A DNA stretch of 14,504 nt from Escherichia phage Bf23. The translations under genes and the position numbers were made by a program. The notes under the pieces were generated by a model, which searched no databases, was not told the DNA's origin, and saw nothing but the letters and a program-made list of their open reading frames with translations. Positions 9,166-14,504 of this stretch are shown in pieces; positions within the stretch are counted from its first letter, which is position 1; each line of letters starts with the position of its first letter. The stretch lies in sequence record NC_042564.1. One strand, 5' to 3'.

Positions 9166-9849
9166 TCATCTATTTTTCTTAATACTTTTAGGATCTTTCC
9201 CTGTTAGGGACTTATACCTTTTCCTTAATCCAGTATCAGACAATCCTAGTTCTTTGGAGGCACGAATCCAGGAATATTTAGATACCCAGTACTCTATTTG
9301 CTCCACAGTAATATCTGGATTTATAGTTATCTCTTTAGGAGTACATGATTTACAGTGTGTTGCTCTTGAGCTAATTTCGCAGTGACAAATAGCACACGTA
9401 TTTACAGTCCTTTCTGTATACCTGCCAATATTTTTGCCTGCATGAGTAGGTGTTAGTGCATGGCAATTTGGGCATAGGAGGGCTAAGTTATCCCATTCAT
9501 TATTATAGTGATTTCCATCCTTATGTTCAAGTTCTAAAGGAATTGGTTTATCTAACCAACTTTCTAAGCCACAACTCTCACATTTATGTGGTTTTAGCCC
9601 CTCGTTAAGAATTTTATTCTTTAGTTTATAGGAAGAAATAGGGCTGCCGTTATATAAATACTCTGTTGCAGACTTATATTTATTATCATACTGCCTATTC
9701 GCAGGGATAACTACTATTCCTAGTTTTCCTAAATATGCTTCCAAAGTGTTCGAGGAGCAGGATAGCATTCTTGCTATCTCTGCTTTAGATTTTCCCTGAG
9801 CTATCCACTGAGCTATTTCTTCCTTTCTATCTAGTATATCAGTTCTCAT
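9166..9849 (-). CDS. HNH homing endonuclease with HTH-like regions and an extra Cys/His cluster, 227 aa
   Basis: ORF track; HNH motif CESCG ... LELEHKDGNHYNNEWDNLALLCPNCHA; additional CAICHC ... HCKSC; helix-turn-helix-like segments at both ends. Confidence 0.85.
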   Translation of the reverse strand: MRTDILDRKEEIAQWIAQGKSKAEIARMLSCSSNTLEAYLGKLGIVVIPANRQYDNKYKSATEYLYNGSPISSYKLKNKILNEGLKPHKCESCGLESWLDKPIPLELEHKDGNHYNNEWDNLALLCPNCHALTPTHAGKNIGRYTERTVNTCAICHCEISSRATHCKSCTPKEITINPDITVEQIEYWVSKYSWIRASKELGLSDTGLRKRYKSLTGKDPKSIKKNR

Positions 9850-9872: not shown

Positions 9873-9950
9873 TGGTGGCTCCCCGAGGATTCGAACCTAC
9901 GTACCTTCCAGTTATGAGCTGGGTGCTCATACCATATGAGCTTGAGAACC
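9873..9950 (-). tRNA. tRNA with anticodon CAT (Met, initiator or Ile2 type)
   Basis: encoded CCA, acceptor 9877-9883/9944-9950 with two G-U, D-arm gctc/gagc, anticodon loop CTCATAA; T-stem has only 3 good pairs. Confidence 0.5.
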
Positions 9951-10059: not shown

Positions 10060-10088
10060 ATTATATTAGAAATTTAGCTTCATAGCAA
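10060..10088 (-). promoter_or_regulatory. sigma70 promoter (T5 early-promoter-like), inside 3' end of CDS 10066-10584
   Basis: minus strand TTGCTA (revcomp 10083-10088) - 17 nt - TATAAT (revcomp 10060-10065); A-run upstream. Confidence 0.65.
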
Positions 10089-10584
10089 GAAAATTTTTCA
10101 AGTTTTCGGTAGACATCTCATCCACATCTACAGGGGAAACAAACCCATTTAACTGTCTAGCAAACTTTTCGCCAGCAGGATCATTATCCCCAACAGCTAC
10201 CAATTTAAAAGGTAGTAATTTCAATTGCTTTAATAGCGCTTTTCCTGGAGAAGAACCCAACATTGCCAGGGCTGGATAACCAGCGTTATGTAACGCAACT
10301 GCCTTAAATACAGATTCAGCAATCAATACTACTTTTTCATCTCCATTGAGAGTTTCTAGTCCCCATACACACTGTGTAGTAGAATAAGTAAAATATCTAG
10401 CCTCAAAGGGGCACTTACCATGACCTTTTGGAGCAGAAGGATTATAAGTCTGATAGCCTCTCAACATCCCAGAGAAGTCATACAATGGGACTGTTAGCCA
10501 TCCTTCCGGGCTTAACCAGCAATGATATTTATCTGTATCAAATCCTCTAGATAAGAGATGTTCTGTTAGTTCATCAACAGTCAT
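10066..10584 (-). CDS. Toprim-domain protein (DnaG/OLD/RNase M5-type fold), 172 aa
   Basis: ORF track 10066-10635; ATG at 10582-10584 has GAGAGAGGAA SD and lies downstream of the promoter start, whereas the ORF-track ATG at 10635 lies within the promoter; motifs VVLIAESVFKAVALHNAGYPALAMLGS and LVAVGDNDPAGEKF (conserved Glu and DxD). Confidence 0.7.
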   Translation of the reverse strand: MTVDELTEHLLSRGFDTDKYHCWLSPEGWLTVPLYDFSGMLRGYQTYNPSAPKGHGKCPFEARYFTYSTTQCVWGLETLNGDEKVVLIAESVFKAVALHNAGYPALAMLGSSPGKALLKQLKLLPFKLVAVGDNDPAGEKFARQLNGFVSPVDVDEMSTENLKNFLAMKLNF

Positions 10585-10614
10585 ATTAGATTCCTCTCTC
10601 AAATTTATAAATAT

Positions 10615-10643
10615 ATTATACAGAGAATTTAGCATTCAAGCAA
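10615..10643 (-). promoter_or_regulatory. sigma70 promoter closely resembling classic coliphage T5 early promoters
   Basis: minus strand reads aaaaaattcaaTTGCTTgaatgctaaattctctgTATAATatatttataaatttgagagaggaa; as I recall it, T5 PN25 shares TTGCTT -35, CTGTATAAT, and the initial transcribed motif ATAAATTTGAGAGAGGA. Confidence 0.8.
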
Positions 10644-10759
10644 TTGAATTTTTTAACTTTTTAGAGGAAAATCACAGGATGCTTAAGGGTAGCAGGTAAG
10701 TGGTCAGGACCGAAATTTGTGACCCCACTAAAAATCTGGGGGCAATTTTTAAAGACCCC

Positions 10760-10788
10760 TTGACATTTTAGCCGGGGTAGTATAAAGT
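10760..10788 (+). promoter_or_regulatory. putative sigma70 promoter of the plus-strand cassette (divergent from 10615-10643)
   Basis: perfect -35 TTGACA (10760-10765); -10 candidates TATAAA (spacer 15) or TAAAGT (spacer 17); about 60-nt leader before AGGAGG SD. Confidence 0.55.
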
Positions 10789-10850: not shown

Positions 10851-11831
10851 ATGACAGAAGAAGTAGCTAAGAGTCCTGAAACCGTCGCTAGCGTAGCAGC
10901 AGAACTGCATCGTCACGAGGAATCAGATAAGAAAAAGTGGGAGAACGTCAAAGCCTACGAAGAAGAACATCGTGTTCACGATGATAAAGATGAAGAAGAT
11001 GACGATGATGAACATTGTCATAAATATGGAAAACATAAAATGCAAGAACCAGTAAACGTATTTACTAACGGCTTCCCTGGCATGGGTGCATTCCCAGCTA
11101 ATGCAAGTGCTTTCGGTGGAGAAGGTATGGGCCTATTCGGAGCTATCCTAATCGGTGCTCTATTAACAGGCGGATTTGGTGGTTTTGGTGGTTTTGGTCG
11201 CGGTGCTGGTGTTGCCGCTGAAGGAACCGCTGTGGACGCGATCCTTTCTAACCAAGATACTGCAAGTATTCTAGCTGCAATCAATACTACTCGTACAGAA
11301 GCTAATCAGGGCACCGGGGCTGTTCTAAGCGCAGTAAACGGTGTGGGAGCTGCTCAAGCTGCTAGCACTCAGCAAGTTCTGACTACTATCTACGGTACAG
11401 GTGCTAATCTGTCAAACCAGATCTGTGCTGAAACTCGTAACGTTATTCAGGGTCAGTTCGATCTTTCTCGTCAGATGGATCAATCTTTCGCTGCTAACCA
11501 GATCGCACGTGCTCAAGATAAGTTTGACTCTGCTCAGATTGCTTTCCAGCAGTCTATTCAGACTAACAACCAGTTTGCCGCTGTTCAGGCTCAGATGTGT
11601 GCTAACCAGAATGCTATCGAACGTCAGCTTGCCGAATGTTGCTGTGAGCTTCAGACTGCGATCGCTGGTGTAACTACTGCACGTATCCAGGACGAACTGA
11701 ATGAATGCCGTCTGCGCGAAGCAATCGCTGCAGGTAGCGGTGCAAATGGTCAGGTAATCAACCAAATCGCTGTAAGTCTTGGTGCTATCACTCAGACTCT
11801 GGCTGGTCTGCAGGCTAAACTGCCGGCTTAA
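10851..11831 (+). CDS. hypothetical low-complexity protein, 326 aa: acidic His-rich N-terminus, Gly-rich hydrophobic segment, Gln/Ala-rich helical C-terminal region with Cys cluster (ECCCE)
   Basis: ATG at 10851 with AGGAGG SD 9 nt upstream (ORF-track start 10791 lies within the promoter/leader); GGFGGFGGFG segment; opposite-strand ORFs 11018-11284 and 11412-11894 look like antisense artefacts; codons look E. coli-optimal by eye. Confidence 0.7.
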   Translation: MTEEVAKSPETVASVAAELHRHEESDKKKWENVKAYEEEHRVHDDKDEEDDDDEHCHKYGKHKMQEPVNVFTNGFPGMGAFPANASAFGGEGMGLFGAILIGALLTGGFGGFGGFGRGAGVAAEGTAVDAILSNQDTASILAAINTTRTEANQGTGAVLSAVNGVGAAQAASTQQVLTTIYGTGANLSNQICAETRNVIQGQFDLSRQMDQSFAANQIARAQDKFDSAQIAFQQSIQTNNQFAAVQAQMCANQNAIERQLAECCCELQTAIAGVTTARIQDELNECRLREAIAAGSGANGQVINQIAVSLGAITQTLAGLQAKLPA

Positions 11832-11852
11832 AATTAAGGGGAGGAGCCCATT

Positions 11853-12269
11853 ATGAGTAAATATGGTTTTGTAAACAACGGATTTAATCAACAAATGGGC
11901 TCCCAGCAGCCCGTTCCTGGTCTGGATAATCCTTACCTACAACAGTTGCAACAGCATTTAGCAGAAGCGCAACAGATGCAGCAACAACTCCAGCAAAACC
12001 CTGGAAGTGTGAGTCCTATGCAAATGATGCAGCAAATGAGCGGGCAGTCGCAAATGCCTCAACAAATGCAGCAACAGGTGCCTCAGCAGCAAGTTCAGCA
12101 ACAAACCCAACAACCGCAGGTTTCTGCGGAAGGACAGGCAGTACTAGCCCTTTTCGAAGATTTCGCAAAGACAGAGGATGGGAAACAGCTTGTATCACTT
12201 ATGGGTAAGTTTAATAGCTTCTGCCAAAGCCAAGTTGCAAAAGCTCAAAATGGTGGTAATAACTCCTAA
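11853..12269 (+). CDS. hypothetical Gln-rich (prion-like composition) protein, 138 aa
   Basis: ORF track; ATG with GGGGAGGAG SD; 21 nt after the stop of the upstream gene; long Q/M/P-rich tract then short structured C-terminus. Confidence 0.65.
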   Translation: MSKYGFVNNGFNQQMGSQQPVPGLDNPYLQQLQQHLAEAQQMQQQLQQNPGSVSPMQMMQQMSGQSQMPQQMQQQVPQQQVQQQTQQPQVSAEGQAVLALFEDFAKTEDGKQLVSLMGKFNSFCQSQVAKAQNGGNNS

Positions 12270-12278
12270 GGAGGAATT

Positions 12279-12473
12279 ATGTGTTGCAGAAAATCTGTTT
12301 CGTGCTGCCCAATGCCTGTAGCACGTTGTTGCTCTCCAGCAATGTTTACACAAATACCGGCGTTCAATCCCTTTGCCTTTAAGCCTACTCTTATCCTGCC
12401 CCCTAGAGTAGATTTTCAGTCAAGATTGGCCTCCCGTATGGGTGGTTGCTGTAATAAGAGTATATGGTTCTAA
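12279..12473 (+). CDS. hypothetical Cys-rich small protein, 64 aa (four CC doublets)
   Basis: ORF track; ATG with AAGGAGG SD that overlaps the TAA stop of the upstream gene; followed by rho-independent terminator. Confidence 0.55.
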   Translation: MCCRKSVSCCPMPVARCCSPAMFTQIPAFNPFAFKPTLILPPRVDFQSRLASRMGGCCNKSIWF

Positions 12474-12488
12474 AGAACCAAACAATAA

Positions 12489-12524
12489 AGCCCCTAGTCG
12501 AAAGACTTAGGGGCTTTTCTTTTA
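12489..12524 (+). terminator. rho-independent terminator of the plus-strand cassette
   Basis: GC-rich hairpin agcccctagtc / gacttaggggct followed by TTTTCTTTT. Confidence 0.7.
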
Positions 12525-12536
12525 TCTTAAGTACAG

Positions 12537-12576
12537 AAAAGCCCTGCGCTCTCCAGGGAACGCAGGGCTTACTTCG
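12537..12576 (-). terminator. rho-independent terminator downstream of SPFH gene (convergent with 12489-12524)
   Basis: hairpin agccctgcg / cgcagggct; on the minus strand it is followed by TTTTCTGT. Confidence 0.65.
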
Positions 12577-12593
12577 AATATTACGTGTGGGTA

Positions 12594-13541
12594 TTACTTG
12601 TTACGCATATCCATAATCATCTGGCCATCGTAACCAGTGCCAACTACTGTTTGCGGTACACCACCTTGATATTTCTGAGCACGAATCATTTCAACTTCTA
12701 GTTGTTTCCAACGAATCATCTCAGGAGTAATAGTACGTTGCAGAGCGGCGTTAGCTTCAGCTTCTTTCTTAGCTGCGTACAGTTTAGCATCTGCATCACG
12801 TTCGTTTGCAATAGCTTGGTTGTTACGAGCTTCACGATCTGCTTCTGCTTGTTTAACCTTCTGCTGTGCTTCTTGTTCAACACGAGCCAATTCAGCTTTC
12901 GCAGCATTAACTTGTTCTTCACGAACTTTGGTATTCTGTACCTGTTCCATAATTACCGGTGGCAATGTAATATCCTGAAGGAACACTTGCTTAACTGTGT
13001 AACCATAAGGGCGTGCGTACTCTTCAACTTCCTGCTGAATTGCAGTTTGCAATTGTGCTTGAATTTTAGCATCAAACAAATCTTGTGCTTTAGGTACAGA
13101 CTTACCAAACTCACGAATAGTAGATAGTAATTTCTCAGTTACATACTTATCTAGAGCCTGATCCTGGGTGCCTGCGTTAATACGGTTAATCGGTGCCTTA
13201 GAACCATCAAATTGTAACATAACAGTCAGGTCAACAGTGGATTTAAACTTATCCTGGCTAGGAACCTGAAGTTTATCTAATTTTACAGCAATATCTTTTG
13301 TACTAAAAGTATCGAAAGATGCAAATGGGTTTACAAGATGGAAACCAGGTAATACTGGGTTAGGATCTACTTTACCTAGAAATGTTTGGGTTTTAACCGT
13401 ACCATCAGAAACAATAGTATATGAATTAAAAGCTAGGATTAAACCTGCTAAACCAACTACAGCACCAATACCCCAACGTTTAATAGTGCGAATTACTTTT
13501 TGCTCAGAAGTCAGTTCTTTCATATTTTTAGTATTAAACAT
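12594..13541 (-). CDS. SPFH/band-7 (stomatin/prohibitin/HflK-HflC-like) membrane protein, 315 aa
   Basis: ORF track; ATG with AAGGAA SD; N-terminal transmembrane helix (WGIGAVVGLAGLILAF), SPFH-like core, C-terminal Ala/Glu/Gln-rich coiled coil. Confidence 0.8.
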   Translation of the reverse strand: MFNTKNMKELTSEQKVIRTIKRWGIGAVVGLAGLILAFNSYTIVSDGTVKTQTFLGKVDPNPVLPGFHLVNPFASFDTFSTKDIAVKLDKLQVPSQDKFKSTVDLTVMLQFDGSKAPINRINAGTQDQALDKYVTEKLLSTIREFGKSVPKAQDLFDAKIQAQLQTAIQQEVEEYARPYGYTVKQVFLQDITLPPVIMEQVQNTKVREEQVNAAKAELARVEQEAQQKVKQAEADREARNNQAIANERDADAKLYAAKKEAEANAALQRTITPEMIRWKQLEVEMIRAQKYQGGVPQTVVGTGYDGQMIMDMRNK

Positions 13542-13575
13542 ATATTTCCTTTGTTTTAGTTACAGTTAATAAAAT

Positions 13576-13650
13576 TGGCCGAGGTGACAGGATTCGAACC
13601 TGCATAAAGGAATTTAGAAGACTCCTGCCTCTCCCTTAGACTACACCCCG
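13576..13650 (-). tRNA. tRNA-Arg (anticodon TCT), tentative
   Basis: encoded CCA, T-arm acagg/attcgaa/cctgc, acceptor 13580-13586/13644-13650 with G-U, anticodon loop CTTCTAA with G-U in stem; D-arm poorly defined. Confidence 0.5.
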
Positions 13651-14152
13651 TTTAAGTATTTTTAAGAACTCTCGTAAAAACTCTTAAAAATACAGACGAT
13701 ACCGGGAGAGTCATAAGTCTCACTCATTAAGTATTTCAAGACAAAATACAGTAACGTCTATTATTTTCCAGTTTAAGTCAAGGTGACTTAGTGGTTATGT
13801 CCTGCGGTATGCTGAGGACTCGGTTAGGCTAGGGTCATGACTCCCCACCTTTTTGCTGCTACTCAACAGGAGTTATCGCGAATTACCTGTGCTATTGTGC
13901 ACCATTAGTGGCATCTCTCATGCCAGCATTTCCCACTTTGTGGATAGTTTGAAAAACTACTCCGATATGGAGAAAGAACTTCACTATCCTAGAATACCTT
14001 CTAAAGTTCTTCTTTAGCCTGGACATAGTTAAATCGTAATAAAACTATTCAGCAGACTGGTTGGTTAGTCTGGAACCAACTACCGCGTGGTTTAGGCAGT
14101 GCGCAACTAACCTCGGAAGCTTTTACGTTAAAAGCATCAGTTATCCAGTTCT

Positions 14153-14224
14153 TACCGTCCGTAGGATTCGAACCTACATCTTCCACCAGTTACGGCTTGA
14201 TAATACCAATTATACTAGGACGGC
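14153..14224 (-). tRNA. tRNA-like gene, isotype undetermined (possible pseudogene)
   Basis: perfect T-arm gtagg/attcgaa/cctac (14161-14177) and 6-7 bp acceptor pairing (14154-14160/14218-14224) but no recognizable anticodon stem; CCA not encoded. Confidence 0.35.
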
Positions 14225-14447
14225 AGTGTTACTACATAAGTGATTTCCACACCCCACTATTTATAAATTAGAGAAGAGTTTAGGGGAGAGGTTTCAGACG
14301 CCCCATTTTATACGTTCTAGCCACTAACCGGGATTGCCGCCCCCTGTGTACTAGTTTTACAACTAACCCACCGACTCTATTCAGTGCACTCCGGTTGGGA
14401 TTCTGCACTCAGCGTAATCGGCTCGCTGTTCCCTAATTTATGAATAT

Positions 14448-14476
14448 ATTATACAGAATTTATAAGCATTTAGCAA
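14448..14476 (-). promoter_or_regulatory. sigma70 promoter (T5 early-promoter-like)
   Basis: minus strand TTGCTA (revcomp 14471-14476) - 17 nt - TATAAT (revcomp 14448-14453); conserved motif cagaatttataagca / aatgaatttttag. Confidence 0.7.
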
Positions 14477-14504
14477 ATGAATTTTTAGAAAAATTCACTA
14501 GCAG

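Follow-up and report, generated by a model that had tools for sequence, protein, structure and literature searches.

T5.080-family SPFH protein of T5-like phages: probably an accessory, host-derived, standalone scaffold of the inner membrane

The DNA analysed here, a 14.5 kb window, comes from a T5-like phage (Tequintavirus) and covers its tRNA region. It carries 23 tRNA genes on the minus strand (ARAGORN, Rfam) and is 93-98% identical to Tequintavirus genomes, among them T5, ESCO30, chee24, IrisVonRoten and OSYSP. The gene of interest is a 315-codon ORF with an ATG start (12594-13541, minus strand; Table 1), whose product is 99.4% identical in amino acid sequence to that of T5 gene T5.080 (YP_006908) and matches phrog_200 with an E-value of 1.7e-86. 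It is the T5.080 homologue of this phage and was already annotated; the gene is known from phage T5 and many other genomes, being called SPFH, band 7 or PHB domain in many GenBank records and 'prohibitin family' or 'PHB domain' in some database records. It occupies the same position as T5.080, between a bidirectional terminator and tRNA-Arg, with no difference of substance, as befits another Tequintavirus isolate.

Table 1. Features of the SPFH gene and its surroundings (window positions)
Feature	Position	Strand	Basis
SPFH/band-7 protein CDS (315 aa), T5.080 homologue	12594..13541	-	ORF, Pfam Band_7, phrog_200
Shine-Dalgarno AAGGA, 5 nt before ATG	13547..13551	-	read from sequence
Single hydrophobic signal-anchor helix, codons 23-41	13419..13475	-	Kyte-Doolittle, AF2 helix 12-39
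SPFH (Band_7) alpha/beta domain, codons 52-225	12867..13388	-	Pfam envelope, AF2, Foldseek
Ala/Glu/Gln-rich long helix, codons 195-270 (CC1 wall helix of SPFH cages)	12732..12959	-	AF2
Second helix and conserved C-terminal tail, codons 273-315; candidate cap/oligomerisation segment	12597..12725	-	
tRNA-Arg(UCU), 34 nt upstream of the SPFH start	13576..13650	-	ARAGORN, Rfam
T5 rnaX homologue (stable RNA), upstream in the same transcription unit; approximate boundaries	13651..14434	-	T5 annotation, alignment
Sigma-70-like promoter TTGCTA-17-TATAAT, equivalent to T5 P16-17	14448..14476	-	scan (10/12 matches), T5 annotation/alignment
Hairpin + UUUUCU, terminator of the SPFH transcript, 23 nt past the stop codon	12533..12570	-	folding, terminator scan
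AGCGC, T5 major single-strand nick site (32.6% position), inside the SPFH terminator hairpin	12546..12550	-	
Hairpin + UUUUCUUUU, terminator of the cassette transcript	12487..12526	+	folding, T5 annotation
Cassette T5.077/T5.078/T5.079	10851-11831, 11853-12269, 12279-12473	+	ORFs, T5 annotation

The SPFH gene probably lies on one transcript with tRNA-Arg. A promoter scan found no promoter-like site on the minus strand between the tRNA and the coding sequence, and the closest such site upstream of the gene is at 14476-14448, whose T5 counterpart, P16-17, precedes rnaX. On the downstream side, three plus-strand ORFs (the cassette T5.077-T5.079) end at 12473, and the 120-nt spacer between them and the SPFH gene holds two strong U-tract hairpins, one per strand. 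The hairpin on the SPFH side has 13 bp (-25.0 kcal/mol, z -4.0); that on the cassette side (-20.2 kcal/mol, z -4.5) is annotated in the T5 reference as an efficient bidirectional rho-independent terminator (12487..12526). The convergent arrangement and the back-to-back terminators proposed in the initial annotation are therefore real. The window contains only ten RGCGC sites, and one of them, the AGCGC within the SPFH-side hairpin, is where the T5 nick annotated at 39746-39747 falls (window 12549-12550).

Three hallmarks of the SPFH superfamily were found: a profile match, an alpha/beta fold with a long helix, and an N-terminal anchor. The Pfam Band_7/SPFH profile (PF01145) matches residues 52-225 with an E-value of 2e-17 and 64.2 bits, against a gathering cut-off of 23.6, and the match spans positions 13-176 of the 176 in the profile. 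Together with the Foldseek matches to SPFH structures and the Tequintavirus-like window, this bears out the first reading of the gene as coding for a phage-encoded SPFH/band-7 membrane protein. Nothing in NCBIfam matched the SPFH or cassette proteins, and a PADLOC scan of the same proteins (E <= 0.01) gave no match to defence or anti-defence families. The gene is under strong purifying selection, with dN/dS of 0-0.05 among T5-like phages: all nucleotide differences from JLBYU40 are synonymous (dN 0, dS 0.30), and dN/dS is 0.04-0.05 in the comparisons with T5 and SESL. Papers that mention phage SPFH genes call their role unclear (PMC7760394, PMC13239085), and literature searches on T5.080, on SPFH in T5 or Tequintavirus and on prohibitin with T5 found no functional study. 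In the CRISPRi-ART knock-down screen of T5, T5.080 and the three cassette genes were all scored 'Not Fit' (PMC11879866, supplementary file 16).

The layout of the protein is that of a complete SPFH cage subunit. Kyte-Doolittle averages over 19 residues reach 1.6 or more only at residues of about 23-41, giving a single hydrophobic segment, and an N-terminal hydrophobic anchor is present in all 36 aligned members of the family. The AF2 monomer model, built from a 36-sequence alignment (mean pLDDT 73.7, pTM 0.42, with the C-terminal tail below 50), has strands at 41-111 and 181-192 and helices at 113-179 within the SPFH domain, followed by the long helix as one continuous helix of 76 residues (pLDDT 75-90) and a second helix at residues 273-290. 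Across the 36 members the long helix measures 76, 87 or 98 residues, and its indels come in 11-residue steps only. The C-terminal tail carries the motif GGVPQTVVG...MIMDMR, and the columns W278, Y291, G293, V295, P296, T298, G301, G306, D311 and R313 are nearly invariant. The 11-residue steps and the conserved tail would agree with a wall of packed helices and a cap that closes it. The T5.080-family gene codes for a conserved, selected, single-pass membrane SPFH protein.

Structure and sequence comparisons place the protein within the superfamily at large. Foldseek matched the model over its full length, with a probability of 1.00, to erlin1/2, PHB1/2, stomatin, HflK/C, QmcA and flotillin (E 7e-15 to 1e-8). 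The top fold matches are erlins and prohibitins (E 7e-15 to 3e-12), to which identity is 15-19%; these eukaryotic cages differ in being two-paralogue hetero-oligomers of organelle membranes. By sequence, the best PDB match is QmcA, the stomatin-type SPFH protein of the E. coli QmcA-YbbJ complex (PDB 8z5g; E 1.8e-6, or 3.7e-7 with a profile), and the prohibitins match weakly, from 8.6e-5 (PHB2) to 7e-3. QmcA forms a homo-oligomeric cage, as is proposed for the phage protein, but it has an NfeD partner, whereas the phage gene has no NfeD gene nearby in the lineages examined. The comparisons do not assign the protein to a single SPFH branch, with sequence favouring QmcA and prohibitin and fold favouring erlin and prohibitin at similar significance.

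The charges around the anchor suggest on which side of the membrane the SPFH domain lies. The T5.080 homologue has six Lys/Arg and two Asp/Glu residues on the N-terminal side of the anchor, and two of each in the next 20 residues. Across the 36 family members the mean net charge is +2.6 before the anchor and +0.9 after it, and the N-terminal side is the more positive in 26 of them, a modest bias that fails in the other 10. Because of this bias and the positive-inside rule, we predict an N-in topology with the SPFH domain probably facing the periplasm, the orientation of HflK/C. QmcA is oriented towards the cytoplasm, and the charge distribution of the phage protein predicts the opposite.

The same segment bears on the name under which the protein often travels. 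NC_005859, many other records and phrog_200 carry the label 'lipoprotein', which would make it an outer-membrane or periplasmic lipoprotein, for example a receptor blocker like T5 Llp. However, the protein contains no cysteine, as is also true of 30 of the 36 family members, no canonical lipobox was found in any of the 36, and the hydrophobic segment, an anchor of 19-22 residues, lacks a site for signal peptidase II. The label is wrong because the cysteine is absent; we reject a lipoprotein identity, the segment being a signal anchor, and give a lipoprotein of the Llp type practically no chance.

The resemblance to HflK/HflC, which form a complex with FtsH, extends to the N-terminal anchor, the predicted periplasmic SPFH domain, the long wall helix and a candidate C-terminal cap segment, with a fold match at an E-value of about 1e-11. 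By analogy, the phage cage might mimic or compete with HflK/C, enclose FtsH hexamers and so alter the degradation of membrane proteins of host or phage. HflK/C-FtsH structures are indeed among the fold matches (7wi3, 7vhq, 9cz2), and the predicted N-in, periplasmic orientation agrees with HflK/C and not with QmcA. However, the HflK/C chains 7wi3 and 7vhq, although part of the PDB set searched, are absent from the phmmer matches at E <= 0.01 and the profile matches at E <= 0.001; the protein shows no greater sequence similarity to HflK/C than to the remaining SPFH branches, and it is not an HflK/HflC orthologue. It is also encoded by a single gene, whereas HflK and HflC come from adjacent paralogues and form a hetero-oligomer, and it lacks the long N-terminal extension of HflK. 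Finally, the T5 screen gave no phenotype for T5.080 (PMC11879866). We therefore consider a role as FtsH modulator rather improbable.

A second proposal made from the letters of the window was that the SPFH protein acts together with the convergent cassette. T5.077 (326 aa, with its true start at 10851) contains a Gly-rich stretch that is hydrophobic, T5.078 (138 aa) contains 39 Gln and T5.079 (64 aa) eight Cys. The cassette proteins match two families without an assigned function, phrog_8119 and phrog_7894; for T5.077, the AF2 model (mean pLDDT 47.3) is too low in confidence for a fold search. If the SPFH gene and T5.077-T5.079 were a functional module of membrane or periplasmic partners, one could point to the hydrophobic segment in T5.077 as well, and to the adjacency and shared terminator region in about half of the T5-like genomes. 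However, the two stand on opposite strands with separate promoters and terminators, that of the cassette being a P12-type promoter at 10760-10788 (scan, T5 annotation), and their distributions differ. By tblastn, the SPFH gene occurs in 740 phage records, of which about 437 come from T5-like phages, with an identity of at least 80%; the roughly 300 non-T5 records are mostly T4-like (Pseudotevenvirus, Slopekvirus, Biquartavirus, Angelvirus; 60-78% identity), with further carriers among Vibrio, Proteus and Erwinia phages. T5.077 was found in 222 records and T5.078 in 221, all of them T5-like genomes. At least 80% of the region is covered in 211 of 447 records, and the adjacency is restricted to close T5 relatives, where synteny is expected anyway and about half retain it.

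Individual genomes uncouple the SPFH gene from the cassette in both directions. In SESL, a clean deletion joins window position 10913 to 12283 and removes T5.077 and T5.078; the SPFH gene is intact there, and the promoter and the two hairpins remain. In T4-like carriers it is the tk-rI region that holds the SPFH gene, the genes following one another as tk, rI antiholin, DUF5856, SPFH and NadR-like, and the cassette is absent from these loci. Conversely, two metagenomic T5-like relatives keep T5.077 (37-46% identity) and T5.078 (48-52%) as a unit, which in one of them also includes a small Cys-rich ORF, and no SPFH gene was found within 6 kb of either of these divergent cassettes. Once the trivial synteny of near-identical genomes is set aside, the gene neighbourhood is not conserved in related genomes. 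The distribution largely refutes a module with the cassette, which we regard as very unlikely, and shows the SPFH gene to be independent of T5.077-T5.079.

We also looked for other partners. No NfeD-family or second SPFH gene was found flanking the gene in T5-like, T4-like, Aeromonas, Vibrio or Proteus phages, and a search for a conserved partner (NfeD, second SPFH or FtsH) found none in the phages Miller (Citrobacter), Miro (Klebsiella), 44RR2.8t and PX29 (Aeromonas), YP1 (Proteus) and K412 (Vibrio), or in Morganella and Methylophagaceae. Within the window, the Band_7 match is unique among the six largest ORFs scanned (9-13.5 kb), the other ORFs being 172 aa or shorter. No phage-encoded partner is thus conserved across the lineages examined. 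We weighed the adjacency to the rI antiholin gene, seen in Miller and Miro, as a hint at lysis control and set it aside; this adjacency was undetected in 44RR2.8t and may represent a single insertion at tk-rI.

The relatives of the gene point to a cellular origin and to exchange. Its T4-like and Aeromonas counterparts (RB43ORF139c, 44RRORF098c, Aeh1ORF064c) are 60-80% identical to it in amino acid sequence, and the Pfam SPFH matches of the T4-like counterparts were tabulated as early as 2006 (PMC1524935). SPFH genes recur in many large virulent phages, among them T5-like phages, several T4-like genera, and Vi01-like, RaK2-like and N4-like phages. A scan of bacterial species representatives found chromosomal homologues in Morganella and Providencia, with 57-59% identity and in non-phage context; their neighbours include an amino-acid decarboxylase, a TetR regulator, an alcohol dehydrogenase (ADH) and an ABC/HlyD exporter, and the ADH-SPFH context is kept in five Morganella loci. 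More distant homologues (33-41% identity) occur in Methylophaga-type Gammaproteobacteria, in the order accD-folC-SPFH conserved in 11 loci. No NfeD or second SPFH gene was found beside the Morganella and Methylophagaceae loci. The standalone proteins of Morganella/Providencia and Methylophagaceae have the same length and layout as the phage protein and likewise no NfeD; they differ from it in their cellular contexts, with ADH/TetR neighbours or accD-folC-SPFH. An exhaustive search of representatives gave 955 clusters at E <= 1e-3 and only 36 at E <= 1e-30. The small number of clusters at the stricter threshold and the chromosomal homologues therefore place the phage gene in a small, standalone SPFH branch that is both cellular and viral, and the gene has moved between Demerecviridae, Straboviridae and Morganellaceae chromosomes.

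What such a gene might do for the phage can be considered in the light of its surroundings. The T5 tRNA region holds anti-retron functions, Rad (T5.076) and tRNA-Tyr, according to a preprint (bioRxiv 10.1101/2023.03.15.532788). The SPFH cage could serve counter-defence or membrane protection, by preventing premature depolarisation of the inner membrane, whether by membrane-targeting abortive-infection effectors, superinfecting phages or early triggering of the holin. The gene borders this tRNA region, which has been described as an anti-defence island, with the Rad anti-retron gene 2 kb away, and, as conditional anti-defence genes typically are, it is conserved but can be dispensed with on a laboratory host. 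In Pseudotevenvirus and Slopekvirus it also lies two genes after the rI antiholin gene, but this adjacency was not detected in Aeromonas phage 44RR2.8t. Nor does the protein have a PADLOC match or known homology to anti-defence proteins, and ADI fragment 9, whose genes are not listed in the accessible text of the preprint, is not named there among those found to rescue phage from the three retrons under test (bioRxiv 10.1101/2023.03.15.532788). On balance we think membrane protection of this kind fairly unlikely. A fuller version, in which a periplasm-facing homo-oligomeric cage would conditionally insulate the inner membrane or a specific membrane protein against membrane-targeting abortive-infection effectors, superinfection or premature lysis, we hold to be a tentative idea with a low chance of being right. 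It would agree with the strong conservation of the gene, its place beside the T5 anti-defence island, its dispensability on a laboratory strain and the lack of an enzymatic domain. If true, it would amount to a structural anti-defence device common to T5-like, T4-like and other large virulent phages.

The explanation that we favour, with somewhat more than even confidence in it as a whole, is a standalone SPFH scaffold of bacterial origin that is exchanged among large virulent phages, forms a periplasm-facing homo-oligomeric dome and brings a conditional benefit. Under this proposal, the gene would have been acquired from bacteria and then passed among large virulent phages. It would be expressed early, at the end of a transcript that heads leftward from P16-17 through rnaX, tRNA-Arg and the SPFH gene to its own hairpin. 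The protein would insert N-in, with the SPFH domain on the periplasmic side as in HflK/C, and would self-assemble into a homo-oligomeric dome, which would enclose a patch of the inner membrane of the host. The enclosed patch may shield or sequester a membrane client, or stabilise the membrane during infection; an FtsH-type protease is the known precedent for an SPFH client. Since laboratory E. coli can be infected without the gene, its benefit would be conditional. In short, the model and the comparisons above suggest that the protein is probably an accessory, host-derived, standalone scaffold that self-assembles into an inner-membrane cage.

For this window, the outcome mostly tidies the record: the gene turns out to be the known T5.080, its common label is mistaken, and the proposed partnership with the cassette is not upheld. 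Three modest additions are made here: the label 'lipoprotein' is dropped, the SPFH domain is predicted to face the periplasm, and the wall helix is seen to vary in units of 11 residues. Between 2006 and 2026, several papers have described the role of phage SPFH proteins as unknown. Knowing that role would account for an accessory gene that is strongly selected and widely exchanged, and would furthermore supply a simple homo-oligomeric model for the biology of SPFH cages.

The terminator hairpin of the SPFH gene (T5.080 homologue) contains an AGCGC motif that lies at the exact position of the annotated major single-strand nick of T5, at 32.6% of the genome, so that the hairpin serves as a nick site as well. 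In the window, RGCGC is scarcer than expected, with 10 sites against about 25.

The convergently transcribed genes T5.077, T5.078 and T5.079 form a conserved unit, which we found in T5-like genomes only, including two metagenomic relatives with divergent versions. The N-terminal part of T5.077 is acidic/His-rich, and the protein also has a hydrophobic segment rich in Gly. Its helical region, rich in Gln/Ala, carries an invariant CCC, and its C-terminus (NGQVINQIAVSLGAITQTLA.LQ) is near-invariant. Gln makes up 28% of T5.078, and 8 of the 64 residues of T5.079 are Cys. Searches of Pfam and NCBIfam gave no support for the label ‘cAMP-dependent protein kinase catalytic subunit’ carried by T5.078, which probably stems from its Gln-rich composition. 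The AF2 model of T5.077 was poor (pLDDT 47), and the cassette scored ‘Not Fit’ in the CRISPRi-ART knock-down screen of T5. The sole ‘Semi-Fit’ gene of this neighbourhood in that screen was T5.076, re-annotated there as Rad, an anti-retron protein of T5-like phages; its Toprim-like homologue is 189 aa long as an ORF here, vs 172 aa as annotated in T5.

Features of the Bf23 window and of related loci (window coordinates unless a locus is named)
Feature	Position	Strand	Remarks
HNH homing-endonuclease gene (T5 hegA homologue)	9166-9849	-	
tRNA	9876-9950	-	Rfam, 38.2 bits
Toprim-like ORF (T5.076 homologue)	10066-10635	-	
AT-rich module, ~80 bp	10573-10661; 14429-14503		motif …TATATTATACAGA…TTAGCA…
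T5.077/T5.078/T5.079 cassette	10851-12473	+	also L072 6001-7278, L073 6001-7464 (metagenomic relatives)
AGCGC motif	12546-12550	-	inside SPFH terminator hairpin
T5 rnaX homologue	13651-14434	-	between promoter P16-17 and tRNA-Arg
Cellular SPFH relatives	L020 5968-6939 (Morganella/Providencia); L034 5974-6867 (Methylophaga-type)		

The tRNA listed from Rfam was not called by ARAGORN; its position beside tRNA-Ser(GCU) indicates that it is probably the T5 tRNA-Ile2(CAU). Located between tRNA clusters, the hegA homologue has a LuxR-type HTH domain at its N-terminus and is missing at the same position in some T5-like relatives (e.g. JLBYU40, ESCO30 and SESL). The homologue of rnaX, a stable RNA of about 0.7 kb in T5, differs from its T5 counterpart by indels of about 90 and 150 nt, and within it lies a tRNA-like element (14152-14225) reported as ‘tRNA-Ser(act)’ by ARAGORN and as a tRNA by Rfam (39.6 bits). 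The AT-rich module is repeated 5’ of several leftward transcription units, at positions corresponding to the annotated T5 early promoters P15a, P16-17 and P-D/E33.

Relatives of the SPFH protein are also cellular. In Morganella/Providencia the gene stands alone on the chromosome, its product sharing 57-59% identity with the phage protein, and across 11 Methylophaga-type loci the order accD-folC-SPFH is kept, with 33-41% identity. In our alignment of 36 family members the long SPFH helix measures 76, 87 or 98 aa, all length differences being multiples of 11; the steps map to reference residues 248-254 and arise by duplication of an A-x-x-A-x-K-x-E-A-E-like unit. These 11-residue steps suggest that the helices build a hendecad-phased wall whose height would vary in quantised steps.
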